IMG/VR virus record: IMGVR_UViG_3300031555_001562
DNA from: a virus
Taxonomy: Duplodnaviria > Caudoviricetes
DNA: 64,000 nucleotides
Strand: one strand, 5' to 3'
The notes beneath the pieces were generated by a model. It was not told the DNA's origin. It saw only the letters and a program-made list of their open reading frames with translations, and did not search any database. How positions within the stretch are numbered: position 1 is the first letter of the stretch; each line of letters starts with the position of its first letter. The position numbers were made by a program, and so were the translations under genes. Below are positions 2,202 to 28,101 of the stretch, in pieces.

Positions 2202-2843
2202 TTAACTTTCATACGGAGACGGTAAACTGTAATCCCAAATTTCATAATCACCACTGTAGTGATTTCTGAAATAGTTTACTTCTCCGTCACCTCTGAACCA
2301 CAAATAATCATCCGGTAAAACCCTTCCAACATCCGTATATCCGGACTTTTCTTTGCTCCACCGGATAAGTACATCTTCTGCCAGATCGTAAAGCTCTTCA
2401 GTTACTGGTGCAGAACTGTTCCATGCAAACTGATTTGGCTTTGTAGCTGCCGCATATATGCTCTTTGAATCGCCAGCATCAACACGATTTACAATTGTCC
2501 ATGCAACACATGCCTGTTGTGTAACGCTCTTAACACCACGACATTCTTCCCAAAGAACTTTCGCAACTACTATTACATCATCTTCAGTAAAGTAATATAC
2601 AATCTCCGGTTCGGTACATTCAGTTTCAACAATCACTTCCAGTTCCGGGGGTTCCGTTTCTGGTTCTGTAGTTTCTACTGGTTCCGTAACACATGTAGTT
2701 TCAGCTATAGTTTCTTCTGTGGGAACAGTCGTAGATTTTGGTGCTGTATATTGCGGATCATATGTATCAATAGCTGCAATACCAATCATCAATAATACAA
2801 TGGCAACGATCAGCATCAGATATATGTTATATTTGTCGCTCAA
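2202..2843 (-). CDS. Membrane-anchored cell wall hydrolase (SleB/Hydrolase_2-like)
   Basis: N-terminal hydrophobic helix, T/E/P-rich linker, then AKVLWEECRG...VAWTIVNRV...PNQF typical of SleB/CwlJ catalytic domains. Confidence 0.75.
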   Translation of the reverse strand: MSDKYNIYLMLIVAIVLLMIGIAAIDTYDPQYTAPKSTTVPTEETIAETTCVTEPVETTEPETEPPELEVIVETECTEPEIVYYFTEDDVIVVAKVLWEECRGVKSVTQQACVAWTIVNRVDAGDSKSIYAAATKPNQFAWNSSAPVTEELYDLAEDVLIRWSKEKSGYTDVGRVLPDDYLWFRGDGEVNYFRNHYSGDYEIWDYSLPSPYES

Positions 2844-3904
2844 ACCAAATCTTTCTCCTGTCTATTGCAGATAACGATGTCTCTACAAATAGGACATCCG
2901 CCAGCACAAGTCGCTCTGGAGGGGCAGGATGCACAAGAATATCTCAGAGAATTTCTGAACTTCTCAAACACTTCTCCATCCCAAGCTTCTTGGATGGTAT
3001 GATTCTTCAGACTGACAAAGTACTTCGGATCCTGATTGCCAAAAGAACATGGCATTGCATTCATACTCGCATCAATGTACATGCTGTGCCTTCCGCCCTC
3101 GCAATAATCCATGCTGTCCAGATTGATCTTACTTGTAAAGTTCACGATACCAGAGCAAGAGCAGCTGTCGAAGCCGATCTTGTGGTGGAACTTACCTGTG
3201 TCAATCAGTTCGAAGAACTCTTTGACTTTGGGATTATCATAAGTCAATATGTTCTCCATCTTGCCCAGGCCAATAGGCTTATACAGCAAGAAAACCACCG
3301 CATTAATACCCATCTTGAAGCTATTTGTTCTCAACTTCTGGATTGCATCATCAATGGTTTTCGCACTCAATACATAGTGAATATTCGTCTTTACACCAGC
3401 ATCCAGAAGCATATCAATTGCTCCATTGGTATAAGGTGCAAAGTGTTCACTCACTGCAATTGCACCACAGTACTTCTTACAGACCTCAGCCTTTTCCTTT
3501 GTCATAGCAATACCAGAGGTTGTAAAGTTAGGAATGATACCATGCTCTCTGGTTGCCTTTAGAATCTCTTCAAAATTTTCATGCGTGTCCACATCCCCCG
3601 CACCGCCCAGGGCGACCTGAAGAACCTTACCTTTGCACTGTTCCATAATACTCAGGTAGTTCTCAAGACTCATATTGGAGCCGGTTCGATCAATGGCTTT
3701 CTGGTAGCAGTCAACGTTGCACTTGTGCGCACATACGCATCGCTCCATAATACCGATATCGATCAGTGAAGGGAAGCATCGCATAAAAGGATCGATACCA
3801 GTATCTTTACCTTCAGCATCGATCACACCGCTGCGAACATAAAATCCTGTATCCGGATTGAAAAGTTCAACAAAACGGTTCTTTTTGTCAATGAATCTAA
3901 TCAC
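2840..3904 (-). CDS. Radical SAM protein with SPASM domain
   Basis: Cys triad CAHKCNVDC (CX3CX3C variant), ALGGAGD motif, C-terminal CEGG...PCSF...CASC...CAGGCP. Confidence 0.9.
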   Translation of the reverse strand: MIRFIDKKNRFVELFNPDTGFYVRSGVIDAEGKDTGIDPFMRCFPSLIDIGIMERCVCAHKCNVDCYQKAIDRTGSNMSLENYLSIMEQCKGKVLQVALGGAGDVDTHENFEEILKATREHGIIPNFTTSGIAMTKEKAEVCKKYCGAIAVSEHFAPYTNGAIDMLLDAGVKTNIHYVLSAKTIDDAIQKLRTNSFKMGINAVVFLLYKPIGLGKMENILTYDNPKVKEFFELIDTGKFHHKIGFDSCSCSGIVNFTSKINLDSMDYCEGGRHSMYIDASMNAMPCSFGNQDPKYFVSLKNHTIQEAWDGEVFEKFRNSLRYSCASCPSRATCAGGCPICRDIVICNRQEKDLV

Positions 3905-3926
3905 TTGTTGTCCTCTTGATTTCTAA

Positions 3927-3974
3927 ACACTATATATTGTGGTTATACCAAACACCAAACACAATATCTAGGTT
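3927..3974. promoter_or_regulatory. Tandem NrdR-box-like operators upstream of the radical SAM gene
   Basis: ACACTATATATTGTGG (3927-3942) and ACACAATATCTAGGTT (3959-3974), starts 32 bp apart; match the NrdR consensus acaCwAtATaTwGtgt and its usual tandem spacing. Confidence 0.7.
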
Positions 3975-3998
3975 GTTTTTGTCGATAAAACTATTATT

Positions 3999-4241
3999 TC
4001 ATTCAGTCTTGCATTTGATGTCGCAATAGGGATCGATCAGGGATACGGGCTTCCTGCATTCTGGAGGGCATGTGCAATTCGGCAGATATGCCCGTGATTC
4101 ACATTCTGAAAAGTCATGATCTCTTCCGCAAAACAAATCACATCTGAAACAATTCCTTTCAACGTATGCCTTCTTGATTGCCTGATTGTTTGGTGTATCA
4201 ATCCGCAATCCTTTATACTTTTTAGGATGCACGTATTCCAT
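3999..4241 (-). CDS. Small Cys-rich hypothetical protein
   Basis: ORF from MEYVHPKK, CFRCDLFC motif; overlaps the 3' end of RT. Confidence 0.55.
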   Translation of the reverse strand: MEYVHPKKYKGLRIDTPNNQAIKKAYVERNCFRCDLFCGRDHDFSECESRAYLPNCTCPPECRKPVSLIDPYCDIKCKTE

Positions 4242-5277
4242 GATCTTCTCCTTCGTTTTCAAAGAGCGAGTCAACAAATTGATCCATGCTGCATATCAAC
4301 TTATAGCAGTTGCCGTGCGACGCATGATTCTTCCACGAACCATACTTTTCGTAGAATTTTTCTTTCGTCATCTTACCGCTCTTTACGAGCTTCGCATTTT
4401 TGCGTAAGCGTTTCTTGATCTGACGTTTGTTATCTCCGGTCAGCTTCCGGATGACCTTGCCATCTTCTGTGATGTATGTATGAAACCCTAAGAATCTAAT
4501 GCCTTTTCTTAGCGGAACAATCTCTGTCTTATCGTTCAAAGTCAGACACAAACCAGCTAAGTACTCTTCAATTTTCTTCAGACAATCTTTTAGATATTCT
4601 TTATCATCAGAAATCAGGTAGAAGTCATCCATGTATCTGCCGTAATACTCGCAGCCAAGATCCTCGGTGATGAAGTAATCAAGTCCGGTCAGATACATCA
4701 GTGCAAACACCTGGCTACTTTGATTGCCGAGCGGCAGACCATCTCCGTCCACACTATCAACAAACAAGTTGCAGATCCATTGAATATCTTCATCCGGGAA
4801 GTACACCCGGATAATTCTCTTCATAATATCGTGATTGATACTGTAAAAGAATTTTGTGATATCGCACTTGAGTATGTATCCTTCGCAGCCATGATTGTCA
4901 TAAAAATCAAGTAGATTTTCTGACAAGCGATCTAGGCCAAATAAGGTTCCTTTGCCTATTTGACCAGCATAGTTGTCGAGAAGAAAGATGTCTTTCATCT
5001 TCGGCAACAATACATAGTCACACAGGCAGTGTTGCAGAACCTTATCTCTAAAAGCGCCAGAAGTAATAAGCCTTTTCTTTGGTTCAGAAATAATAAACTG
5101 AGAATACTTAGATATCTCATATGTGTGTTCAATGAGTTGACGCTTCATCCTGTAAAGGTTTTCTAGCGCCAACACACTGAACTGGATTGCGCTTTTCTTC
5201 TTACCCTTGCCTCGCATTGAGACAGTGTAAGAGGCATACAGATTCTCAAAGTCTATTAGCTTCTGAAAATCTTCCAT
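4222..5277 (-). CDS. DGR reverse transcriptase
   Basis: FRDKVLQH, KCDITKFFYSI, GLPLGNQSSQ, YYGRYMDD and FLGF motifs; adjacent to TR and avd. Confidence 0.95.
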   Translation of the reverse strand: MEDFQKLIDFENLYASYTVSMRGKGKKKSAIQFSVLALENLYRMKRQLIEHTYEISKYSQFIISEPKKRLITSGAFRDKVLQHCLCDYVLLPKMKDIFLLDNYAGQIGKGTLFGLDRLSENLLDFYDNHGCEGYILKCDITKFFYSINHDIMKRIIRVYFPDEDIQWICNLFVDSVDGDGLPLGNQSSQVFALMYLTGLDYFITEDLGCEYYGRYMDDFYLISDDKEYLKDCLKKIEEYLAGLCLTLNDKTEIVPLRKGIRFLGFHTYITEDGKVIRKLTGDNKRQIKKRLRKNAKLVKSGKMTKEKFYEKYGSWKNHASHGNCYKLICSMDQFVDSLFENEGEDHGIRAS

Positions 5278-5392
5278 ATGATCCTTTTGTATTTATCCCA
5301 CCGTTCCCGGTGAGAAAGGTTATACGCTCTTTTGATGATGTGGTGTACTCCTTGTAGTTGCCGGAGCAACTTATAGACCTCGCAAATCCACC

Positions 5393-5474
5393 AGAACGGA
5401 CGGACACCGTTGCTCCAATCACAGTCATTCCAATTCAGAATGCCATTAGAGTTGACGTAGCAAACGTTGCCAGT
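5393..5474 (-). repeat. DGR template repeat (TR)
   Basis: Non-coding, between avd and RT; 82-nt ungapped match to VR1 and 78-nt match to VR2; rich in AAC/AAT codons on the minus strand. Confidence 0.95.
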
Positions 5475-5498
5475 TTCAGCGCATAACCTAAAGGCTTA

Positions 5499-5867
5499 TT
5501 AGGTCTTCTTCCGCCACGCAAGCGTCATATGTTTTATGTCGTATGCGAGGCCAGTCCATTGTTCGCTCATAGCGGCGCTTATTAACTTGGCATGCAAGCT
5601 GTATCTCACCAGGCTCAAGAATTTATTGCATTCCGTTATTGCTAAGGTTTGCTTTTCTATTCTTTTGGCTCTGTGTCCCTCTGAATCAGGAACATAGGAA
5701 TTTGCGTCCAGCAAATACCCATATATGTTCAAAGAGATCTCCTGAAGTTTATCTGTAATCCGCCGATACCTTACTGGATAGTGTTGGCGAATAGTAGTAA
5801 TATCAAAGACTGAAAAATACAGCTGCTCTGCCTTATTGCCTATTTCAAATCTTACTTCTTCACTCAT
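5499..5867 (-). CDS. avd: DGR accessory variability determinant (Avd, four-helix bundle)
   Basis: 122 aa helical protein between target and TR; HYPVRYR...IYGYLLDAN...AWRK pattern. Confidence 0.85.
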   Translation of the reverse strand: MSEEVRFEIGNKAEQLYFSVFDITTIRQHYPVRYRRITDKLQEISLNIYGYLLDANSYVPDSEGHRAKRIEKQTLAITECNKFLSLVRYSLHAKLISAAMSEQWTGLAYDIKHMTLAWRKKT

Positions 5868-5875
5868 TTGTTATC

Positions 5876-6333
5876 TCACTCTACCAAGAGGGAAGAGTCG
5901 AGGATCAAGAACGGACGGACACCGTTGCCCCAACCACAGACATTCCAAAGCAGAATGCCATCAGAGCTGACGTAGCAAACGCTGCCAGTATAACCAGATA
6001 CCTCAGCGGTGACTCTGGTTGCAGTCCACCATGCTTCGCCCATTGCCTTCAGGAACTTCCGGTAACGGCGATACCGATCAGTAGTCAGAATGGACACGAA
6101 ACCCTCAACGGTCTTGATACCAGTGCCATCGTCTGCGGTCAGATCGACGGTATGACGGATGATATTCTCAGCACCCACCGACTTGACCATCTCGTTGTAG
6201 AAGTCATTGATACAGTAGCTGCGAACATCGCTGGTCTCATAGTCGCCGGTGGAACCATATTCCATACGCTTAACGAAATCCTTGGCAATTACTGCGGTTC
6301 CATGTTCGGTGTGTTCCAGGACAATGAACTCAC
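5876..6333 (-). pseudogene. DGR target 1, 3' portion (5' portion lies inverted at 6629-6780 on +)
   Basis: EFIVLEH...WWTAT...GVRP, paralogous to 27463-28101; the N-terminus of track ORF 5876..6499 is not real. Confidence 0.85.
5908..5989 (-). repeat. DGR variable repeat VR1
   Basis: 8 mismatches to TR in 82 nt, all at TR adenines (coding strand). Confidence 0.95.
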
Positions 6334-6528
6334 CTGCTGAAGGCAAAAGATAAGGCAATCGAACTGGGTCTGATCGAGGGCGAACAGTTTGGCCTGATCT
6401 ATGATAACTGCATGACAGAGCTTGTTCCGGAAGAAGAAAATGGAACGACTCTGACTGGAATCTGGTTCTGTCCTTTACCTGATGAGGTTGCACACACAAT
6501 TAGTAAAAAATATCAGCTATATCGTTAA
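6331..6528 (+). pseudogene. Peptidyl-tRNA hydrolase Pth2, displaced 3' portion
   Basis: Reads HLLKAKDKAIELGL...IYDNCMTEL...TLTGIWFCPLPDEVAHTISKKYQLYR*, resembling the C-terminal half of Pth2. Confidence 0.85.
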
Positions 6529-6547
6529 AGTAGACGCAATATAGTTG

Positions 6548-6576
6548 TTGACAAAACGATTCAAGTGTGTTATAAT
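6548..6576 (+). promoter_or_regulatory. Consensus sigma-A promoter of DGR target 1, inside the inversion
   Basis: TTGACA-N17-TATAAT, flanked by two ACGCAA-type operator copies; RBS AAGGAG and ATG at 6629. Confidence 0.85.
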
Positions 6577-6628
6577 ACCCACAGTAAGACAACGCAACAA
6601 AGTAGAATATAACGCAAGGAGAATTTAT

Positions 6629-6780
6629 ATGGAGATCAAGGTTATCAACAATGTTCCCAATCTCAATGTCACCGTAAACCAGGCAGAAGACGGCAGCTTT
6701 GCTATCCTGCTGGCTGAAGACAAGAGAAAGGCGCTCGGTAGCGCCGAACTGGGATCCATCAAGAAGATCGGCAATCGTGA
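6629..6780 (+). pseudogene. DGR target 1, displaced 5' portion
   Basis: MEIKVINNVPNLNV...LGSIKKIGNR joins EFIVLEH in frame after re-inversion. Confidence 0.85.
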
Positions 6781-7019
6781 TTCTTGTTGCGTGCCTCACA
6801 GATTGTCTTCACAAACGATCCGTTGATATACTGCTCGAACATGTCTTTTTCAAACGACGCACGATATGTGTAATCATCAACAGATTCATCGGGAGGCCAT
6901 GAACTATTCCTGATATCGTTTGTCCAATATGCCTCCGCACAATGCGCTACCTGGGCAGCAAGCTTACCGGGAGACATATGTAGATCTTTGCGCATTATGA
7001 AAAGTCTTCTGTATCCCAT
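6777..7019 (-). pseudogene. Peptidyl-tRNA hydrolase Pth2, 5' portion
   Basis: MRKDLHMSPGKLAAQVAHCA is the Pth2 signature; frame broken at the inversion junction. Confidence 0.85.
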
Positions 7020-7021
7020 GC

Positions 7022-7249
7022 TTATATGACTCCTTTTCCTTTTAGCCATTCCGCAGCGTCAAGCAGAATTGCAACTACGAACCATAGTCCAAGGCAGATT
7101 CCAAGGTCTGCCCATCCACTATGATCCCATCCAAGGATTGCGACAACACCATCAAGTAAATATCCTATAGAGACTGCGAATAAGACGCCAATTCCTGCGC
7201 ACAACAGAAGGTTAATTGCAGTTCTCAAAAACTTGATTACATGTTTCAT
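7022..7249 (-). CDS. Small membrane protein
   Basis: Two hydrophobic segments; in operon. Confidence 0.65.
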   Translation of the reverse strand: MKHVIKFLRTAINLLLCAGIGVLFAVSIGYLLDGVVAILGWDHSGWADLGICLGLWFVVAILLDAAEWLKGKGVI

Positions 7250-8088
7250 GGCTCACCAACAAAAACCAGATCCTCGACATACTTTCTCCCGTCTCCCTTG
7301 AAGATAGGAATCTTTTTATCGATAATCCATTTAGGACGTTTATCTTCGTCTCCCTGAACCTTTATGCAACAGCTGCCACGCTTTTGATGTACAGGGAAAT
7401 CGTTCCAGTTGATACCCTTTTCCAGCATAAGCATGTCTTGCATCTGGCTCTGGGACTTGTTTTGTAACATTCCATGTGAGAAATGCGCCTGAGCTACCAT
7501 TTCCACGGAATTTCTGGTTGCATCATTCTGCCGCCACAAAACACAGTTGCAGACTTCTTCCTTTGGAATGTTGAACACACGTGCATCGAACAGAGCGCCC
7601 TTCTCAGCCGCCTTCTTGTATGCCTCGTAGTATTTGCCATTGTCCTCTTCTGAGAATGTAATATGATATCCAATCTCAGTAAGATCAATGTCAGTATTGA
7701 ACTCATAGAAAGCATTCAGATTTGCAACAAAGAATCTGTTGAACGCAAATGTAGCCATCGACGCAGCAATACTGCACATCTTCTGGATGTTGTTATCAAA
7801 CCATGCGCAGCTGTTGAGTTTCTTGTAATCCACCAGAACAAGTGTGATTTCGTCGGACTGTGTATAGCCCAAAACGCAACCTTGAATATTTTCGCATAGA
7901 TACTTCGTGGTATCCTGCATGGTGGAGATCAGCACTTCATCAAAAGGTCTTTTGAAACCTCTTGTGAAAGTGTGGAATGCCTTACCATCCAGCCGGATGA
8001 TTACTGGCATTCTGGGTACGAGATATGTACGGGTGATATACTCGTACTTTTTCATGCGATCACCCAGCGCATCTCTTTTCTTTGCCAT
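7246..8088 (-). CDS. tRNA(His) guanylyltransferase Thg1-like protein
   Basis: RLDGKAFHTFT, YTQSDEI, FDAR and WRQNDATRNS motifs. Confidence 0.93.
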   Translation of the reverse strand: MAKKRDALGDRMKKYEYITRTYLVPRMPVIIRLDGKAFHTFTRGFKRPFDEVLISTMQDTTKYLCENIQGCVLGYTQSDEITLVLVDYKKLNSCAWFDNNIQKMCSIAASMATFAFNRFFVANLNAFYEFNTDIDLTEIGYHITFSEEDNGKYYEAYKKAAEKGALFDARVFNIPKEEVCNCVLWRQNDATRNSVEMVAQAHFSHGMLQNKSQSQMQDMLMLEKGINWNDFPVHQKRGSCCIKVQGDEDKRPKWIIDKKIPIFKGDGRKYVEDLVFVGEP

Positions 8089-8097
8089 ATATGCTCC

Positions 8098-8385
8098 TTA
8101 CGTTGTAAAGAATTCATCGACTATCGTCAGGTTCGCATTGACATCTAGAACCATATCCTTGACATAATCATTTTTGCATCTGCCCCTGTCCATCCTGAAA
8201 CAAAGAGGATTTGGTTCTGTTTCATCAACATAGTATTCTCTTCCGCAGTGATTGCATGTTTCTTTGGAATACCTATCGTCGGGAAGCTCTTTGAACTTAT
8301 AGAAATGTTGCCATGTCAAATTATATCTATTTTCATGTCCGCAGTTTGGACATCTCCAATAGCTAAAAACATCAACCCAACTCAT
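8098..8385 (-). CDS. Small Zn-ribbon protein
   Basis: CPNCG and CNHCG. Confidence 0.6.
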   Translation of the reverse strand: MSWVDVFSYWRCPNCGHENRYNLTWQHFYKFKELPDDRYSKETCNHCGREYYVDETEPNPLCFRMDRGRCKNDYVKDMVLDVNANLTIVDEFFTT

Positions 8386-9149
8386 GTTTCAGCGGAATAA
8401 GGGAAAGATGGCATAAGCTCAAGCTTGAACTTGTTCTTCTCATGCATGCGGTCAATCTTTTCTTTTACAACTTCATCCTCGCATACGCCAGTACGAATGT
8501 ATTTATTCAGAACGGCATATGTAAAGCCAAAATTGTCTTCGTCAGTCTTACCACACAGACCATCAGCAGGAACCTTGTAGGCCAGATCATAAGGAAGACC
8601 ACATTCCACACCGATTGCCATAACCTCATCTGTGGTCAAATTTGACAGAGGGCTAAAATCACCGACACTATCACCATAACGAGTGGAATAGCCGATCCAA
8701 TCTTCTGACAGATTGCAAGTGTTGGCAACTCGTCCATTGCATGACTGAGATACAGCATAGAGCGTAACCATACGCAGACGTGCAGGAAGATTGATTCTGG
8801 TCTGCTCAGAAATATCGAACTTCATGTTCTGCGGATTCTTGCGATTATCGCAGATCCCACGATAAATACCATGTTCTGCATCATGGATATTGATCCACAC
8901 TCGCTTGATTCCAAGATGATCCACTACCGCAAGAGAATCATCGATATCTGCTTGTTCACCGTTGGGCATCAGAACTCCGATAACACGATCTTTACCCAGT
9001 GCTTCCACACACAGAGCAGCCACAACAGAGCTGTCCTTGCCACCGGAGATGCCGACGATAGCATTACATCCGTTACCGTTTTTCTCGAACCACTCACGGA
9101 TCCACTCAACGCACGCTTCCTTTACTTTCTTCACATCGAACTTGTACAT
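8382..9149 (-). CDS. nadE: NH3-dependent NAD+ synthetase
   Basis: GISGGKDS, ARLRM, GYSTRYGD and PADGL motifs; no glutaminase domain. Confidence 0.93.
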   Translation of the reverse strand: MYKFDVKKVKEACVEWIREWFEKNGNGCNAIVGISGGKDSSVVAALCVEALGKDRVIGVLMPNGEQADIDDSLAVVDHLGIKRVWINIHDAEHGIYRGICDNRKNPQNMKFDISEQTRINLPARLRMVTLYAVSQSCNGRVANTCNLSEDWIGYSTRYGDSVGDFSPLSNLTTDEVMAIGVECGLPYDLAYKVPADGLCGKTDEDNFGFTYAVLNKYIRTGVCEDEVVKEKIDRMHEKNKFKLELMPSFPYSAET

Positions 9150-9556
9150 AATTCAGATCTCACTCTCATTAGAATTCTGCCGAGTCTATTTTCACCAACT
9201 CCATGCACAGCGCCCCAAATACGGTCTCCCCAGGTATTACCCTCGACAAGAATCTCATCGCCTGTTGCCAGAAGCTTTGCTCGAAGATCAGGGTTTTGCT
9301 CGAACTTCGCCTTGCAAATTTCGTACATAACCTGGTCTTTGATCTGCTCCCAGTCTTCACGCAGCTGAACTTGTCTACCGAGTTTCTTTGCGTCAGATGG
9401 ATTCAGCTGGTGGAATTTCATGCGAATGAACTTATTGGTGGTCTTCTGTGCCTGAAATGCTGCTTCGTTATTTCTATAGGTGATGCCACCGTAAGTGACA
9501 TCACTCTCATAGAAATTACTCAGAAAGTAGAATTCGCCTTTGAACTCTCCAATCAT
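9131..9556 (-). CDS. NADAR family protein
   Basis: FLSNFY, EAAFQAQK, KFEQN, LVEGN, WG and NRLG motifs. Confidence 0.92.
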   Translation of the reverse strand: MIGEFKGEFYFLSNFYESDVTYGGITYRNNEAAFQAQKTTNKFIRMKFHQLNPSDAKKLGRQVQLREDWEQIKDQVMYEICKAKFEQNPDLRAKLLATGDEILVEGNTWGDRIWGAVHGVGENRLGRILMRVRSELCTSSM

Positions 9557-11082
9557 CAGAATTTGCCTCCATTCAGGTTTGCACGGACTTCCTGCAAGGT
9601 GTATTCCTTTACCATCTTGCCGTCCTTGAAAACAGTCTTCAGCTGGTTATCAGGATCATTGACTGCCTGTTCCCAGGTATAACCGTCCTCAAATACGTAT
9701 TCGCCATTGTTATCCAGATGGACAACACAGCATCCCTTCTGGGACTTCTTGAAGCCACCATCCTTGGGATTTTTGAAAATCGGATGGGGATCGCCGTTGA
9801 TCTCGCAGTAGGTAGCCTTGATGCAGAAGCTGAAGGTATCTCTGGTAAAAGGCTTCAACAGCTTGACCTTTCCAGTAACTTTGGTTCCGTCTTCCAAGGT
9901 AACAGTAACGTCATCAACTTCCTCAATGCACTGCATGGAGAAAGAACCAACACCCAGAGCAACATTGGAACATGCAAAGCCATTCTCCATCAGAATCTGA
10001 TAGATCTCTTCGCAACGCTGAACGGTGATGCTATCACCATAGATTGCCTTAACATGGGGATCCAACACCTTGTAGCCCTTGGAATTGATAGTGCCGCCAA
10101 ACTGATCCCAAAGCTTGAAAACAGTCTTAGTAACAACTTCAACACAATCACCGGAGTCGCCACGCATGAGCATACAACCGTTATGGTTCATGATTTCTTC
10201 CTTGGTCTGGGGCAGAACATTGTCAATAATGTTCCAATAGTCATAGGAATCCAGAACGGCAGAGAAACTTGTGTTGGGATAGATTTCGGTCAACAGACGC
10301 TTCAGAAGCGTAACCTCATCGCCGTCAACCGCATAGTTGGAACACATGACGGAATGTTCGGTACTGGGGCTACCAAATGCAACCGGCTCTTTGGTGCAGT
10401 CACAGTTATACATTTCCTCCAGATAGGGAATTGTTGGTACGGTTGCGGTATTCAGGAAAGACAGACACCATGCAGCGCCAGCCTTAGTTGCAGAATCCAG
10501 GCATTCCTCGCCACGGAAGTCAAATGCGCCCAAAGCTCTTGCACGAGGCACATTATCATCACAGGTCAGATCATAATACTTGTTTACGATCTGGCGGTAA
10601 GTATGGCCTACGGTTGCAACGATCATGGGATGCCAAATTTCAGCAGACAGTAGACTCTCAAGAGCCTGGGGAAGCCACGCAAAGTCCGGATGGGTATTGG
10701 TAATACCGAACATGGGAACATGCATGGGAACCATAGTGCCTTCAGGAAGTGCAACGATTTCGATGGGCAGATATCCCAGCTTGTGCAGCTTAGAAATCTT
10801 TTCAATTCCATACACATTCTTGCCCAGAGCGGCATCCATGACTCTGGTATAGCTTTCGATAACTTCATCGTGGGACTTCTCGAAGAACTCGGTGTTGAAG
10901 TAGTCGATCAGATAGGTTTTACAAAATGCCTGGAGGATGAACATGACCATCTTATCCCAGCGGTTAACTCTGCCCATTCTGGGAGTTGCATAGGACATGG
11001 ATTTAGTCATATTCTTTGGGAGCATTTCTGCATGAACGCCCTTGTAAAAGTCGATCAGCAGATTGGGATTAGTTCGCATCAT
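9556..11082 (-). CDS. NAMPT-fold nicotinamide/nicotinate phosphoribosyl (or ADP-ribosyl) transferase
   Basis: DFYK..H, FDFRG, STEHSVM, VLDSYD, RGDSGD, IYGDSIT, TRDT and KKSQKG motifs. Confidence 0.9.
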   Translation of the reverse strand: MMRTNPNLLIDFYKGVHAEMLPKNMTKSMSYATPRMGRVNRWDKMVMFILQAFCKTYLIDYFNTEFFEKSHDEVIESYTRVMDAALGKNVYGIEKISKLHKLGYLPIEIVALPEGTMVPMHVPMFGITNTHPDFAWLPQALESLLSAEIWHPMIVATVGHTYRQIVNKYYDLTCDDNVPRARALGAFDFRGEECLDSATKAGAAWCLSFLNTATVPTIPYLEEMYNCDCTKEPVAFGSPSTEHSVMCSNYAVDGDEVTLLKRLLTEIYPNTSFSAVLDSYDYWNIIDNVLPQTKEEIMNHNGCMLMRGDSGDCVEVVTKTVFKLWDQFGGTINSKGYKVLDPHVKAIYGDSITVQRCEEIYQILMENGFACSNVALGVGSFSMQCIEEVDDVTVTLEDGTKVTGKVKLLKPFTRDTFSFCIKATYCEINGDPHPIFKNPKDGGFKKSQKGCCVVHLDNNGEYVFEDGYTWEQAVNDPDNQLKTVFKDGKMVKEYTLQEVRANLNGGKF

Positions 11083-11917
11083 AGTTCATTACCTCGATCT
11101 TTTCGTGTTCTTTGGTGAAAATGCTGTTTGTGGTAAAAACACGGTCAACGAGTCCACTGGTCAGCAGCTCGCCGTCCAGAATTGTGTTCTCGCAGTGAGA
11201 AACATACAGATAGATTTCTTTTGCGCCCAGTTCCTTCAGCTTCTTTGCGCTATGGTAGAACGTACCGCCACGGCTGCAAATGTCATCGACGATCAGAATG
11301 CGCTTTCCGGCAATCATATCAGTCATACCGGACACATCCAGACCATTGATCTTTCCAGTAGACCAGTCACGCTTTTTGATGCCGAAAGCATACGGAATAT
11401 TAAACATGCTGGAATATCTCTTCATTGCGCCCTCATCGGGGTAGAACATCATGAGATCATTTTCGCCGGATGCAGACTTCAGCTTGTCGATTACGTTTTC
11501 AACCAACTTCTTCGGAGTGCGGATCTTGATTCTGTCAATGAGTGCTTCACTCACAGAAGAATGGGGATCCAGAACTTCAACGGAAGTAAAATCCAGCCAG
11601 TTAATGACTTCCGCAAAGCTCTTCAGAGTGAACACATCCTCTTCACTCTTAACTCTGTCCTGCCGTGCATTAGGAATGTACGGCATCTTCAGGCAGATAT
11701 TTGTGATTCCATTTCTTCTCAGATGTTTCGTGACATGGATCAGCGCCACCAGCTCTGCGTCATTCTCGTACAGCCATGTGATAGTAGCACGAGAAATATT
11801 AGTGGGGAAAGCCAGAGGCCAGAAACCATATGCCATTTCCGGACGCATCTTAATCAGCATAGTACCATCGGGGAACTTGCCAATATTTACTTCACGATCA
11901 TTTCCGAAAAGCAACAT
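11069..11917 (-). CDS. Ribose-phosphate pyrophosphokinase-like protein (Prs/Adps-like)
   Basis: FPDG, MPYIPNARQDR, DPHS, PDEGA and IVDDICSRGGTF motifs. Confidence 0.9.
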   Translation of the reverse strand: MLLFGNDREVNIGKFPDGTMLIKMRPEMAYGFWPLAFPTNISRATITWLYENDAELVALIHVTKHLRRNGITNICLKMPYIPNARQDRVKSEEDVFTLKSFAEVINWLDFTSVEVLDPHSSVSEALIDRIKIRTPKKLVENVIDKLKSASGENDLMMFYPDEGAMKRYSSMFNIPYAFGIKKRDWSTGKINGLDVSGMTDMIAGKRILIVDDICSRGGTFYHSAKKLKELGAKEIYLYVSHCENTILDGELLTSGLVDRVFTTNSIFTKEHEKIEVMNYDAN

Positions 11918-11921
11918 TGCA

Positions 11922-12449
11922 TTAACCTCCGATGATGTCGATCTGGCACATGTTCATGGTATGCAGAGCTGCCTGATGGGTCTGTGGAGTAACACCAGCG
12001 CAGCAGGATGCATCCACGGCAATGTCGGTCTCAGGGTAGTTTGCCTTCAGAAGCATTGCATTGGATACAACGCAGATATCGGTGCAAAGACCGACCAGCT
12101 CGATGTACTCATAGCCGAGGCCACGAATGATCTCAGGAAGTGCAGTGCTGCCGAAAGTCAGCTTGTTCAGAGAAGCAACATGGTTGGGATGTTTCACCAG
12201 GGCGGCAAACACGTCACCATTGATCTTATGACCGTCAGTATTCTCAATGCAGTGAGAAACAGGCAGATTCTTGCCTTCTCTGGTTTCCATATAGTTGTTG
12301 AAGTGGGTATCCTGAGTAGTGATGATGTCACCATCCCAGTTGTTAATCTTTGCGATAACATTGGGAACGATTGCAACTGCCTCAGCAGTACCCAGGGAGC
12401 CGTCGATGAAGTCGTTCTGCATATCGACTACGACCAAAAGTTTCTTCAT
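11922..12449 (-). CDS. pncA: Nicotinamidase (isochorismatase family)
   Basis: VVDMQNDF, QDTH, HC, K and GLCTDICV motifs. Confidence 0.88.
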   Translation of the reverse strand: MKKLLVVVDMQNDFIDGSLGTAEAVAIVPNVIAKINNWDGDIITTQDTHFNNYMETREGKNLPVSHCIENTDGHKINGDVFAALVKHPNHVASLNKLTFGSTALPEIIRGLGYEYIELVGLCTDICVVSNAMLLKANYPETDIAVDASCCAGVTPQTHQAALHTMNMCQIDIIGG

Positions 12450-15536: not shown

Positions 15537-16487
15537 TTACTTCTTTAATTGATCGACCATTGCCATCAGCTGCGTAATTGCATCAACATGAGCCATCACG
15601 TCCACATTGTCCGCATTGGTTCTGCCAGCTTCATATGCAGCCTTGATGATATCTCTGAGATCATTGGCCTCAAGACTCAGGATAAAGCTATTGGACACAT
15701 CCTGATATTCTCTGTCACCAATGATATAGTCTTCGAAGAAGTCACCCATATCATCATAGTATTTATCGACCTTCTGCTTGGTTAAACCGATGTAGTGCTT
15801 GGTTGTTTTCACATCGGAATGGTTGAAGATAGTTTGCAGAATCTCCATGCTGTCATAATCGCCAGGGTGGAGCATTCTGTTCATCATGCCAAAAGTCTTT
15901 CTGGGGCTATGAGTTCCGACATTATATTCGATACCCAGATCAGCGGCAGCTTTCTTGACATTCTTGTAGTAACAACTCTCAGACATCACTCTGCCCTTGT
16001 AGTTACCGGAAAGCTGCATACAAATAGGAACGGAGTAGTTTTCCTTCGCAGGATCACATCCTGTTTCCTTGAGATACAGCTGGATCGCAGATCTGCATGC
16101 AGAATTAATCTTAGGATTTGCCAGCTTATCAGTCTTCTCTTCTGCGAATTCCAGAAGATTGACTCTGAGCTGCCCGGTGACGGGATTGAAGAAGTTCTCC
16201 CAAGTCAAACTCAGGGTATCTCCAACTCGTCTTGCCATGTTGCAACTCAGAACAAAGATCATGTAGCACAACCACTTCTCATTGTCACGGAAATAAGCAG
16301 TGATCTTCTTCATGTCTTCAATCTCAAGGTGGTAGACTTCAGACTTCTTGCCTTTCTGCTTGTTCTGACAGATCTTCTTAGGAGTACCATCCTTTTTCAG
16401 TTTCGGTTTGCTCTCAACGACTTGCAGCTTAATTGCCGGATCGGGATTACCAGCGCAATTGGCCTGAACCAGAGATAACACCGCCAT
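15537..16487 (-). CDS. Tyrosine recombinase with intact catalytic residues
   Basis: RVGD, EKT, HSPRKTF and NHS...HYIG; start moved to MAVLS because a TTGACA-N17-TATAAT promoter lies inside the longer ORF. Confidence 0.88.
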   Translation of the reverse strand: MAVLSLVQANCAGNPDPAIKLQVVESKPKLKKDGTPKKICQNKQKGKKSEVYHLEIEDMKKITAYFRDNEKWLCYMIFVLSCNMARRVGDTLSLTWENFFNPVTGQLRVNLLEFAEEKTDKLANPKINSACRSAIQLYLKETGCDPAKENYSVPICMQLSGNYKGRVMSESCYYKNVKKAAADLGIEYNVGTHSPRKTFGMMNRMLHPGDYDSMEILQTIFNHSDVKTTKHYIGLTKQKVDKYYDDMGDFFEDYIIGDREYQDVSNSFILSLEANDLRDIIKAAYEAGRTNADNVDVMAHVDAITQLMAMVDQLKK

Positions 16488-16562
16488 ACATTTCCCTCCA
16501 ATCTTTTGTGGTAAGTTGGTTACTACTTGGATTATACCATATCGTCCATTGTTTGTCAACAA

Positions 16563-25068: not shown

Positions 25069-27465
25069 TCAACTATATAGCTTTTTCAGATTGAACTTCT
25101 TGATAATGGTATCTTTCAGTTCATCAAAAGTAGGGGTATCGCCAAAAGGCATTTCGATCTTTGCCCCATCAACCCAGAGTCCGAAGTGGTAGAAACCCTT
25201 GGATTCATCGTAGGAGAAACTGATGGAAACATCCGCATTCAATTCCTTGCGGTTCAAGCGGCTATGCCAAATTCCGCAAGCGAAATTGGTCACACCCCAG
25301 TCAGTTCTAGGATGCAGGACACGCATACTCCATTCGATGCCGTGTTTCTGGTTATCTGCATAAGCTGCATTTCTCAGGAACTCAGCCACTTCTTGCAACT
25401 TAGGTACATTCTTCTTCATGATTGACCTCCAGTTTCTTGCCAACTGCCAGCATAGCCAGACAGATGATTAGTGAGATGACGTTCATGGTTTCGATCAGGC
25501 TCATAACATATTCCCCATAGTTGTAGCGATACACAGCAATCCAGCTTCCGCTGCACTGTCAGAACAATTGATAATTGACTCAATGGAATTAATGAACTCA
25601 CATCCACTGCCGTGTTCTTTCGCAGGAGAAATCGTTACACACTCAGGCATGTAGACGATGATCTCAGGCTCAAATTTTCCAACATAATTAGTATCACCAC
25701 GAGCTGCGGCGATCCTATTGGCTTCTTCCACTGCTTTCTGTCCGTCCAGTGCGGAGAAATAGCGCTCATTGGAGATGTTGGAATTGTAGTGGTAGTCAAC
25801 AGAAAGACTTGTTCCGCCATGATTATGACCCAGGCCAAAAGTGTAAATTCAGTATCTAGGTTCTGCCGTCTGAACATAAAGCGTTCCGTCTACCAAAAGA
25901 TACTTACTCATACCTTCTACTGCCTTGGCAATCATATCTTCTCTGCTAGGATGTTCGTTCCAGTATCTGCTGGAAAAGTACATGCTTCCGTGTTCGTTCC
26001 ACCACATCACGGCTTCAAGAGGAGTCTTGTATCTCTCAGAATCGTTGCTTCCGCAAATGGATCTGATGGTGGCTGCATTCCAGAACAGGCCATTGTAGGA
26101 GTAGATAAAACCCTTGCCGCCATAACTTCTGTCCTCAAAAGCTTTGCTGAGTGCGGAGATAGGGGCTTCCGCAAGCTCGATGTCAACGTATTCCTCGCAC
26201 TCCCGGTATCTGTACTTCCTGCATCTGGGAGTGGGAAGATACTTCTCTTCATATTTGATCCATGTTTTGATTTTCATATTATCCTCCCATCACAGGATGA
26301 ACTCTCTGTCGGTCTTCTTATCTGCGATTCCCTTTTTGGAATAGGGTCTTACCCAAATAACCTTTCCGGTCTTTGTCTTTCGGTAGTGGCCTCTGACGCT
26401 GAAGGTGGACTTGTAACCGTGCCATTCTTTCTTCGGTGCAGGAAGCTCTTCCAGCATGCTATTGGAGATTGTGTATCTCCGAATGGTTAGCGGCTTTCTC
26501 TGGCTTCCCTTGCGCTTGCCTCCCTTGCTACTCTTGGCAGTAGTACGGTGAACGGTCTTGGTACGCTCGACATCTTCCCGGTAGTAGGTTGCAAACAGCA
26601 TGAGCGCCTTGAACTTACTGACACACTTCCAGATGGTATTATCCTGTGCTAGAATCATACTCATCTGTGCTTTTCTGATAGGATCATCTACGTTGATTTT
26701 CAGATCTTCCAAATGATTGTCTTCCATATTGCTCTTCCATGAAGCGATCTTCAACAGCTCTGCGCCGCCATCTTTCATAAAGAACATCTCAAAAGCAACT
26801 ATAGGAGAACCTTCATCTCGGAACCGGAGTGTAATCAATTCTTCCTGGAACTCAATATCCGCAGTTGCAAAGGGCAGTGCAATCGCCGCACCAGTCAGCT
26901 TTTCCGACCAGTCAATGACTCTCTGCATATCGGTATTGGCTCTAACGATGATCTTATCCACTCCGGTTCCTCCTGTCTTTTCTTACTTTGCGCTGTAGTA
27001 GACTTCGGGCGGAACCTTGTAGATCCACGAGCCGCTTCTTACCAGCAACGCATCTTTTCCGTAGTACTTTTCCTTCATACCCTGAATGCTGCCGGTTGCA
27101 GAGAAGTTAGGGTACTGAGAAAGATTGTATATTTTCTTCTGTTCCTTGTTCATGTATCTTACTCTGGGCATTTGAACCTCCTGTAACATTCGAAACTTTC
27201 GGGGTTTGCATCTGCATGAAATACTGATTTTATTGATATCTCCGGTAGCTGGAATGGAAGTTTGTGTACACCACCACAGCATCGTCCGGAATCTCTTTCA
27301 GTTTGATAGAACCGGGATTTACCCATTCATCTCCGCCTAGCTGCGGACTGATCCATTCAAGGAACTTGCTTACCGCCTCGGATCTGCCTTCGGCACGGAT
27401 GATGCATACCCGGTCTTCATATGAAACACCCGTGTCGAAGACAAACTCAACCTTGTAGGTCATCA
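25069..27465 (-). CDS. Several hypothetical ORFs
   Basis: 25069-25443, 25501-25731, 25849-26277, 26290-26961 (VRGHYR...WVRPY motif), 26983-27171 and 27230-27465. Confidence 0.55.
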
Positions 27466-28101
27466 TTCCTCCGTATCGACAAGAGTAGAAGAGGAAAGAG
27501 TCAAAACCGGACGGACACCGTAGCCCCAATCACAGTCATCCCCATTCAGAATGCCACTAGAGTTGACGCAGCAAACGTGGCCAGTGTAGTCATTGCTGGG
27601 AGTGGAGAAGGGAGTGATGGTCAGCCAGGAGCATTCGTACTCGGACATGACACCCAGGATCTTGTGGTACTTTGCGTACTCAGCGGCGGTCAGCATGGAA
27701 ACCTTGTCAATGCACGTGCCGTAGTCATCCAGGCCATCCAGAGAAGTCAGGTCACGGTGCATGTCGATGATATTCTCAGCGCCGAACAGCTCACACATGT
27801 GCTGGTAGATCTCGCCGCTGTTCATACTGGTACGAATGGGACTCACTCGCCAGTCATTGTTCTCACCGAACTCATGGCGGTCATCCAGGAAGTCAGCCTT
27901 GATAACGAACACTTCGCCGTTGGGCTTCTTGTCCAGGACGATGAACTTCTCGCCGTTCTGGGTGAAAGTATCGCCGGAGTTCAGCGTGCCGACTTCGATC
28001 TTGCTGTGGAACAGGGTCTTGGGATCGACGTTACCGCAGTCGATGATGATCTTGTTGCCGCTGATGGTGAACTGTGCATTGTTGATAGTAAACTGATTCA
28101 T
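27463..28101 (-). CDS. DGR target 2 (remote), C-terminal CLec-type variable domain
   Basis: Paralog of target 1 (FIVLD, DLTSLDG, VSMLT, WL.T, GVRP); carries VR2. Confidence 0.92.
   Translation of the reverse strand: MNQFTINNAQFTISGNKIIIDCGNVDPKTLFHSKIEVGTLNSGDTFTQNGEKFIVLDKKPNGEVFVIKADFLDDRHEFGENNDWRVSPIRTSMNSGEIYQHMCELFGAENIIDMHRDLTSLDGLDDYGTCIDKVSMLTAAEYAKYHKILGVMSEYECSWLTITPFSTPSNDYTGHVCCVNSSGILNGDDCDWGYGVRPVLTLSSSTLVDTEE
27508..27585 (-). repeat. DGR variable repeat VR2
   Basis: 7 mismatches to TR in 78 nt, 6 of them at TR adenines. Confidence 0.92.

Follow-up and report, generated by a model that had tools for sequence, protein, structure and literature searches.

In the window analysed here, a stretch of 64,000 nt from a 163,674-bp IMG/VR record (completeness rating 100%) of a ~164-kb ruminant-gut phage, a 451-bp segment at positions 6330-6780 lies inverted across two genes, and the question is how this arrangement came about. 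An earlier note on this DNA had considered a phase-variable switch that turns off the adjacent DGR, a selected mutation inactivating the DGR, a one-off rearrangement, and an amplification or assembly chimera. Here we describe the DGR and the split genes, compare the locus with its un-inverted relatives and with other assemblies that carry the inversion, and weigh these explanations against the sequences at the two junctions.

The reverse transcriptase (RT) gene of the DGR (4222-5277, minus strand) encodes an intact protein of 351 aa, which matches PF00078 and is 71-80% identical to the RTs of relatives. It is accompanied by the template repeat (TR; 5393-5485, minus), which forms a repeat pair with VR1 and is nearly invariant across 10 relatives, and by an Avd-like accessory gene (5499-5867, minus; 122 aa), which gave no Pfam match and is syntenic with the Avd of relatives. 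VR1 (5908-6000, minus) lies inside the 3' end of a DUF6273 gene, target 1, and is 86% identical to TR; the TR/VR1 mismatches are exclusively T on the plus strand, that is, they fall on TR adenines of the coding strand. The element is therefore a DGR in all its parts: an RT, an accessory gene and an adenine-specific TR/VR pair whose VR is placed 3'-terminally in the target gene. Another target, remote from the first (target 2; 27463-28101, minus; 212 aa), contains VR2 at about 27480-27588, whose differences from TR are adenine-only except for one mismatch (27530-27545; TR AATTGG, VR2 AATGGG). Upstream on the same strand is a packed operon encoding a NAMPT-like protein, NADAR, NadE, a zinc-ribbon protein, Thg1, a 75-aa membrane protein (TM75) and Pth2. 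The DGR is flanked by this NAD-salvage/Thg1/Pth2 operon (8382-12449) and by a radical SAM/SPASM gene (2840-3904), and the order is kept in 10/10 close relatives. A megablast search of the phage collection with positions 4000-9000 of the window returned zero matches.

The inverted segment begins with TCAC and ends with GTGA, and no inverted repeat longer than these was found in its flanks, in agreement with the earlier statement that the junctions have only 4 bp in common. The claim that a flip restores both ORFs in frame was borne out as well. Flipping 6330-6780 in silico produced a minus-strand ORF at 5876-6565 encoding a target 1 of 201 aa from ATG (MEIKV...KKIGNR/EFIVLEH..., the slash marking the joint) and a minus-strand ORF at 6582-7049 encoding a Pth2 of 145 aa from MGYRR (...EARNKNH/LLKAKDK...); the database homologues of the two proteins are exactly 201 and 145 aa long and uninterrupted across both joints. 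As assembled, the break in Pth2 follows residue 80 of the 145-aa form, and that in target 1 follows residue 50. The N-terminal part of Pth2 (6780-7049, minus) covers positions 4-58 of the 115 in PF01981 and lies in a truncated ORF (6759-7049) that ends in ...NKNHDCRSS before the stop codon, the database call being an 86-aa product from MGYRR; the C-terminal part (6331-6528, plus; HLLKAKDK...KKYQLYR and a stop codon) is now on the opposite strand. Joined together, the halves correspond to the intact 145-aa homologues that bear PF01981, and by this comparison the gene, although split as assembled, is a member of the PTH2 family. The first 50 codons of target 1 (6629-6778, plus; MEIKV...KKIGNR), contiguous with the C-terminal part in all relatives, now run into a dead-end ORF of 65 aa (6629-6826), and the remaining 151 codons, including VR1 (5876-6331, minus; DUF6273 match), are called in the database as a chimeric 205-aa ORF (cluster P0121/P0241/P0245). 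Pth2 and target 1 are null in the lineage that carries the inversion.

The segment also contains a consensus sigma-70-type promoter (6548-6576, plus; TTGACA-N17-TATAAT with a TG-extended -10 and a 12/12 match), the sole match above 9/12 within 3900-8200. Comparison with 11 relatives showed an invariant -35, a conserved -10 and a variable spacer, and this conservation reaches the distant relative L079. In the relatives the promoter lies between Pth2 and target 1 and is directed at the DGR operon; in the window it is directed antisense at the N-terminal part of Pth2, TM75 and Thg1. The earlier description of a perfect promoter facing away from target-avd-TR-RT and antisense to the upstream operon was thus correct. 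No further promoter-like site was found on the minus strand from 4222 to about 8160, and no terminator was found separating the upstream operon from the DGR. The compact target1-avd-TR-RT operon has no strong promoter other than this one, which the inversion has reversed. A 6-bp GC-rich hairpin followed by TTTCTCTTGT was seen at 6745-6730 (minus; folding z-score -1.95); it stands on the sense strand of the operon in the inverted orientation only, a weak hint of an accidental terminator before the DGR.

Ten close relatives from ENA and Logan assemblies (L165-L174), with 94.5-97.2% nucleotide identity to the window, align end to end with the flipped window across 5,500 bp, whereas their alignment to the assembled orientation breaks into three blocks, the middle one of 464-469 nt being reversed. 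Thg1, both parts of Pth2, both parts of target 1, Avd, TR and RT are colinear in the IMG/VR relatives L007 and L079. In 8 more viral contigs, with RT identities of 71-76%, the target halves are colinear with Avd and RT, as they are in all relatives in the viral_contigs collection that have both target parts. The related genomes, to which the earlier note had looked for a decision, therefore have the un-inverted arrangement without exception, in all ten close and every more distant relative examined. The intact Pth2 protein P0246 is indexed in 93 collection blocks, and the 10 places shown are all un-inverted. The intact allele is far more widespread than the inverted one. VR1 differs in 10/10 intact relatives, among which TR is almost invariant.

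Three un-inverted sequences have peculiarities of their own. In L194 (Logan SRR22213171, positions 5150-5200; 94.9% identical) Pth2 is split into 74 and 86 aa by an A5-to-A6 homopolymer frameshift, which might mean that Pth2 was lost independently or might stem from a sequencing error. A 1-nt deletion in VR1 of L171 (Logan SRR28154431, intact orientation) leads to a 191-aa target call, representing either an independently damaged target 1 or an error. The TR of L172 (ENA ERZ28593998) reads GGCGGCG in place of the GGCAACG of all others, and this GG recurs in the VR1 of L172; the template was possibly altered towards its own VR, or the assembly crossed over between the repeats.

The same junctions as in the window were observed in at least 13 other assemblies, some of them with private SNPs. 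These comprise nine JGI samples (3300018475, 3300018494, 3300018495, 3300018878, 3300024268, 3300024269, 3300024270, 3300024272 and 3300029705) and four ENA assemblies (ERZ27248314, ERZ27248351, ERZ27248370 and ERZ27248436); JGI 3300029705 and all four ENA assemblies have the same gene layout as the inverted allele. Both junctions are present base for base in the DNA of six contigs (L159, L160, L161, L164, L179 and L180), and in L162 and L163 the junction at 6780 is present and the contigs end inside the segment. The chimeric 205-aa target P0241 occurs on 7 JGI contigs, the longest of 163,910 bp, with its variants P0121 and P0245 also in JGI samples, and the truncated 86-aa Pth2 (P0248) is present on 14 contigs. 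When mismatch clusters at contig ends were discounted, SNPs within the inverted lineage were located at 6077 (common to two samples), 6102, 4810, 4799 and 6688. Since real polymorphisms exist within the lineage, these data indicate that the inverted allele is heritable. All contigs of the lineage show one orientation, as far as contigs, which suppress minor variants, can reveal it. The accessions of the samples fall into few series, possibly with one common source, so that the many samples may mean few independent populations; the JGI samples might be the goat-faeces enrichment consortia of PMC8007473. Their accessions are absent from the text and stored supplements of that paper. Exact-pattern scans of viral_contigs, with the own and near-identical records left out, were empty for the inverted joint and for the promoter, and one scan of metagenome_contigs with a 20-mer from inside the segment gave four unrelated chance matches only. 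The contig L162 (JGI 3300024268) leaves the window at 6380, 50 nt short of the junction at 6330, and continues (2139-2272) in unrelated, GC-rich DNA whose translation resembles a bacterial protein of the FtsW/RodA type; this end of the contig is probably chimeric. The contig L163 likewise stops, at 6384.

Alignment of the flipped window with the ten close relatives gave the ancestral coding-strand sequences AAGAA-CCAR-CTGCTG at the Pth2 breakpoint and GGCAATC-GTGA-GTTCATT at the target breakpoint. The joints of the inverted allele read AAGAA-TCAC-GATTGCC and CAGCAG-GTGA-GTTCATT. The CCAR of the Pth2 break has been lost, and the GTGA of the target break is found at both junctions in inverted orientation; the strictly inverted DNA is thus 6334-6780, and TCAC (6330-6333) and GTGA (6777-6780) are inverted copies of one ancestral 4 nt. 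It is because CCAR is gone and GTGA present twice, once reverse-complemented, that the naive flip yields a His codon (AAT-CAC) in Pth2. The close intact Pth2 homologues examined all have AAC-CAR (Asn-Gln), and the AAT-CAC of the window is found in none of them. The separated halves have not decayed: apart from the junction codon (H vs Q), the C-terminal part of Pth2 equals the C-terminal 64 residues of the intact 145-aa P0246, and the N-terminal part of target 1 equals that of the intact P0123. The undecayed halves and a within-lineage diversity of a handful of SNPs indicate that the event is recent. With its scar, its recurring junctions and the lack of repeats in relatives, the inversion is best explained by the one-off rearrangement that the earlier note had considered, here inherited by a lineage. 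We consider it likely that a single, non-programmed inversion occurred once in the ancestor of the lineage and has been inherited since.

The loss of CCAR, while GTGA sits inverted at both junctions, suggests that the breaks were staggered, and we infer an illegitimate recombination at two double-strand breaks with 4-nt stagger, a reading built on the inferred ancestral sequence. The breakpoints lie inside pth2 and DGR target 1, and the piece between them carries the 3' end of pth2, the promoter and the first 50 target codons. Both sites would receive staggered cuts of 4 nt, and crosswise ligation of the ends, each strand on its own, would leave a 4-nt heteroduplex at either joint; replication would then produce one daughter with TCAC/GTGA and another with CCAR/YTGG. 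We worked through this model for 5' and for 3' overhangs, and both predict the observed pair. The junctions have the properties expected of staggered breaks, namely no junction homology and 4-nt zones that segregate as overhangs, with TCAC/GTGA being one of the predicted daughters. A pattern scan of viral_contigs for the predicted sister product (AAGAA-CCAR-GATTGCC and CAGCAG-YTGG-GTTCATT), own and near-identical records left out, was empty. The candidate routes are subunit exchange by a type IIA topoisomerase or gyrase, and end joining after one break had been filled in and the other resected, which would lead to an identical product. Type IIA topoisomerases are characterised by cleavage with a 4-nt stagger and a possible exchange of subunits. 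That gyrase brings about illegitimate recombination through such an exchange is a long-standing proposal (PMC11164529). A GyrA/ParC-type topoisomerase subunit (PF00521) was not detected in a search of the phage genome, and therefore the topoisomerase route would need a host enzyme.

A different history, which we regard as unlikely, would dispense with staggered breaks: Pth2 might first have acquired AAT-CAC by point mutation, followed by exchange or template switching at the resulting 4-bp TCAC/GTGA microhomology. Illegitimate recombination at short homologies is common, and in the distant relative L079 this codon pair is AAT CAT, so His is tolerated at this place and a pre-existing TCAC is possible. 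However, all close homologues have AAC CAR, and the pathway needs two additional substitutions inside a 4-nt stretch right at the break, when the nearest relative, L167, is only about 2-3% diverged; the staggered-break model requires no extra change. A microhomology join through GAAC, which is common to the upstream sides of both breaks, was tried separately and rejected, as the observed joint lacks the predicted C.

The transcription of avd, TR and RT would be left to read-through from the upstream operon, opposed by the convergent strong promoter and passing the hairpin at 6745-6730. Since this read-through, opposed by the convergent promoter, is the remaining supply, DGR transcription would be reduced in the inverted lineage. 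It has been reported that in Bacteroides the activity of DGRs follows the transcript levels of avd, TR and rt (bioRxiv 10.1101/2024.11.15.621889); by this analogy mutagenic retrohoming is probably attenuated here, and the inverted allele would represent an OFF state of the DGR. VR1 is identical in the five inverted sequences for which there is DNA; the contigs are near-clonal, and therefore this identity is not a fair test of DGR silence.

One contig of the lineage, L179 (JGI 3300024270; matching window positions 5905-6904 and 27321-27588), has both inversion junctions and a VR through which the inverted target 1 is connected with the 3' flank of target 2. The 5' half of this VR is VR1, and its 3' half differs from both VR1 and VR2 of the window, showing changes at adenine sites and one G-to-T; the target-2 flank extends over 200 nt with 0 mismatches to the window. 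The hybrid protein is also encoded in ENA ERZ27248436 (P0242). The VR of L179 may reflect VR2 alleles that vary within the lineage, the presence of a second strain, genuine recombination between VR1 and VR2, or a contig with a chimeric cross-over, and we counted its novel half against a fully silent DGR. A search for lineage-linked VR2 alleles by means of the exact 77-aa neighbour of target 2 found only other strains, 93-99% identical.

It is doubtful whether the inversion was positively selected for shutting off a costly DGR, target 1 or Pth2, instead of being neutral or hitch-hiking. At least 13 assemblies, and among the genomes complete ones of ~164 kb, contain the allele in its inverted form, which speaks for selection, but the samples may share one inoculum. 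In the same way, VR1 is identical among the inverted contigs and different in all ten intact relatives, but this identity is expected among near-clonal contigs regardless of selection. The Pth2 frameshift in L194 and the VR1 frameshift in L171 would be independent disruptions in relatives if they are not sequencing errors.

That the segment is a reversible phase-variation switch (an inverton), in which a recombinase flips the promoter and thereby toggles the DGR, target 1 and Pth2, is very improbable. The idea draws on the consensus promoter inside the segment, on the flip being in frame for both genes, on a tyrosine recombinase encoded about 9 kb away and on the intragenic invertons of gut bacteria (PMC10028968). 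Known invertons, however, depend on flanking inverted repeats that are recognised by the recombinase (PMC10028968), and the only inverted repeat here is 4 nt long and was created by the event itself. Repeats of about 9-30 bp, which invertons have in both orientations, are lacking: when the 40-nt windows around the two breakpoints are compared in the un-inverted relatives, the longest inverted match is 4-5 nt, which is at chance level, randomly paired 40-mers of this region having a median of 5. A programmed inversion would be an exact reciprocal exchange that neither adds nor removes bases, whereas comparison with the 10 close relatives revealed a loss of 4 nt and a duplication of 4 nt at the junctions. 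Each breakpoint interrupts a conserved coding sequence instead of lying between genes, and the OFF state would destroy two conserved proteins. The 10 intact-allele places shown (from 93 index blocks) are un-inverted, and the contigs of the inverted lineage share one orientation. A re-flipped, restored joint on the lineage background would read ...AAGAATCACCTGCTG..., with AATCAC; the pattern scan of viral_contigs for it (own and near-identical records left out) was empty. The phase-variable switch proposed in the earlier note is thus unsupported, given the lack of breakpoint repeats in relatives, the scarred junctions and the lack of a re-flipped contig.

The tyrosine recombinase itself is encoded where it had been reported, about 9 kb away (15537-16562, minus; PF00589), but its suggested role as the invertase did not hold. 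No dedicated recombinase is associated with the segment, this gene being the sole candidate, and its orthologues are conserved in relatives that lack the inversion, with 68% and 60% identity in the un-inverted genomes G001 and G002; in G001 the gene lies at a similar distance (about 9 kb) from Thg1. This conservation identifies the recombinase as a conserved core gene and not a partner of the inverted segment. Slimmer still is the chance of a reversible or recurrent switch that works by an unrecognised mechanism needing almost no repeat; such a switch, if true, would be the first DNA-inversion control of a DGR, toggling hypermutation, one target and Pth2 together.

The weakest explanation, an assembly or amplification (MDA-type) chimera without biological existence, can be set aside as having a negligible probability, because, although so short a junction homology and so small and balanced an inversion commonly raise this suspicion and the related contig L162 does end in unrelated bacterial sequence, identical junctions recur in at least 13 other JGI and ENA assemblies, including contigs with their own SNPs and a second, 163,910-bp contig, and two exact reciprocal joints would be required every time.

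A single inversion at staggered breaks, our preferred reading, can be placed among known systems. Like the promoter invertons (fimS, hin and the invertible promoters of Bacteroides), the segment is short, carries a promoter and sets the direction of transcription by its orientation, and like the intragenic invertons (PMC10028968) it has breakpoints inside coding sequence. Unlike invertons, it has neither pre-existing inverted repeats nor a linked dedicated invertase, its second orientation is not seen in the contigs of the lineage, its junctions are scarred by loss and duplication, and the inverted state destroys two conserved genes. It resembles the illegitimate recombination by topoisomerase II or gyrase described by Ikeda and co-workers (reviewed in PMC11164529), in that the joining is homology-free, the 4-nt zones behave as overhangs and the observed allele is one of the daughters predicted from a gyrase-type heteroduplex. 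It differs in that any 4-nt staggered cut with end joining gives the same product here, and in that the classical gyrase examples are deletions or insertions, whereas this is a small inversion in a phage. The DGR shares with that of Bordetella phage BPP-1 the order target-avd-TR-RT, adenine-specific TR/VR differences and a VR at the C-terminus of the target, with a second, remote target in addition; unlike in the BPP-1-type DGR, the adjacent target is split, the operon is separated from its promoter and the targets are small DUF6273 proteins. The inversion is thus a known kind of event with a tidy scar and not a new regulatory device.

Its value lies in what the lineage offers. With Pth2 and target 1 both disrupted and the DGR promoter disconnected, it is a knockout made by nature, and it shows that a ~164-kb ruminant-gut phage can propagate, and can be assembled completely, in the absence of Pth2 and of the target next to its DGR. 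The lineage also provides a natural comparison to ask whether the loss of the promoter of the DGR operon freezes the remote VR2. The junction scar may serve as a clean example of the signature of 4-nt staggered breaks in a phage genome. For annotation, the catalogue 'proteins' of 205, 86 and 65 aa are artefacts of the rearrangement.
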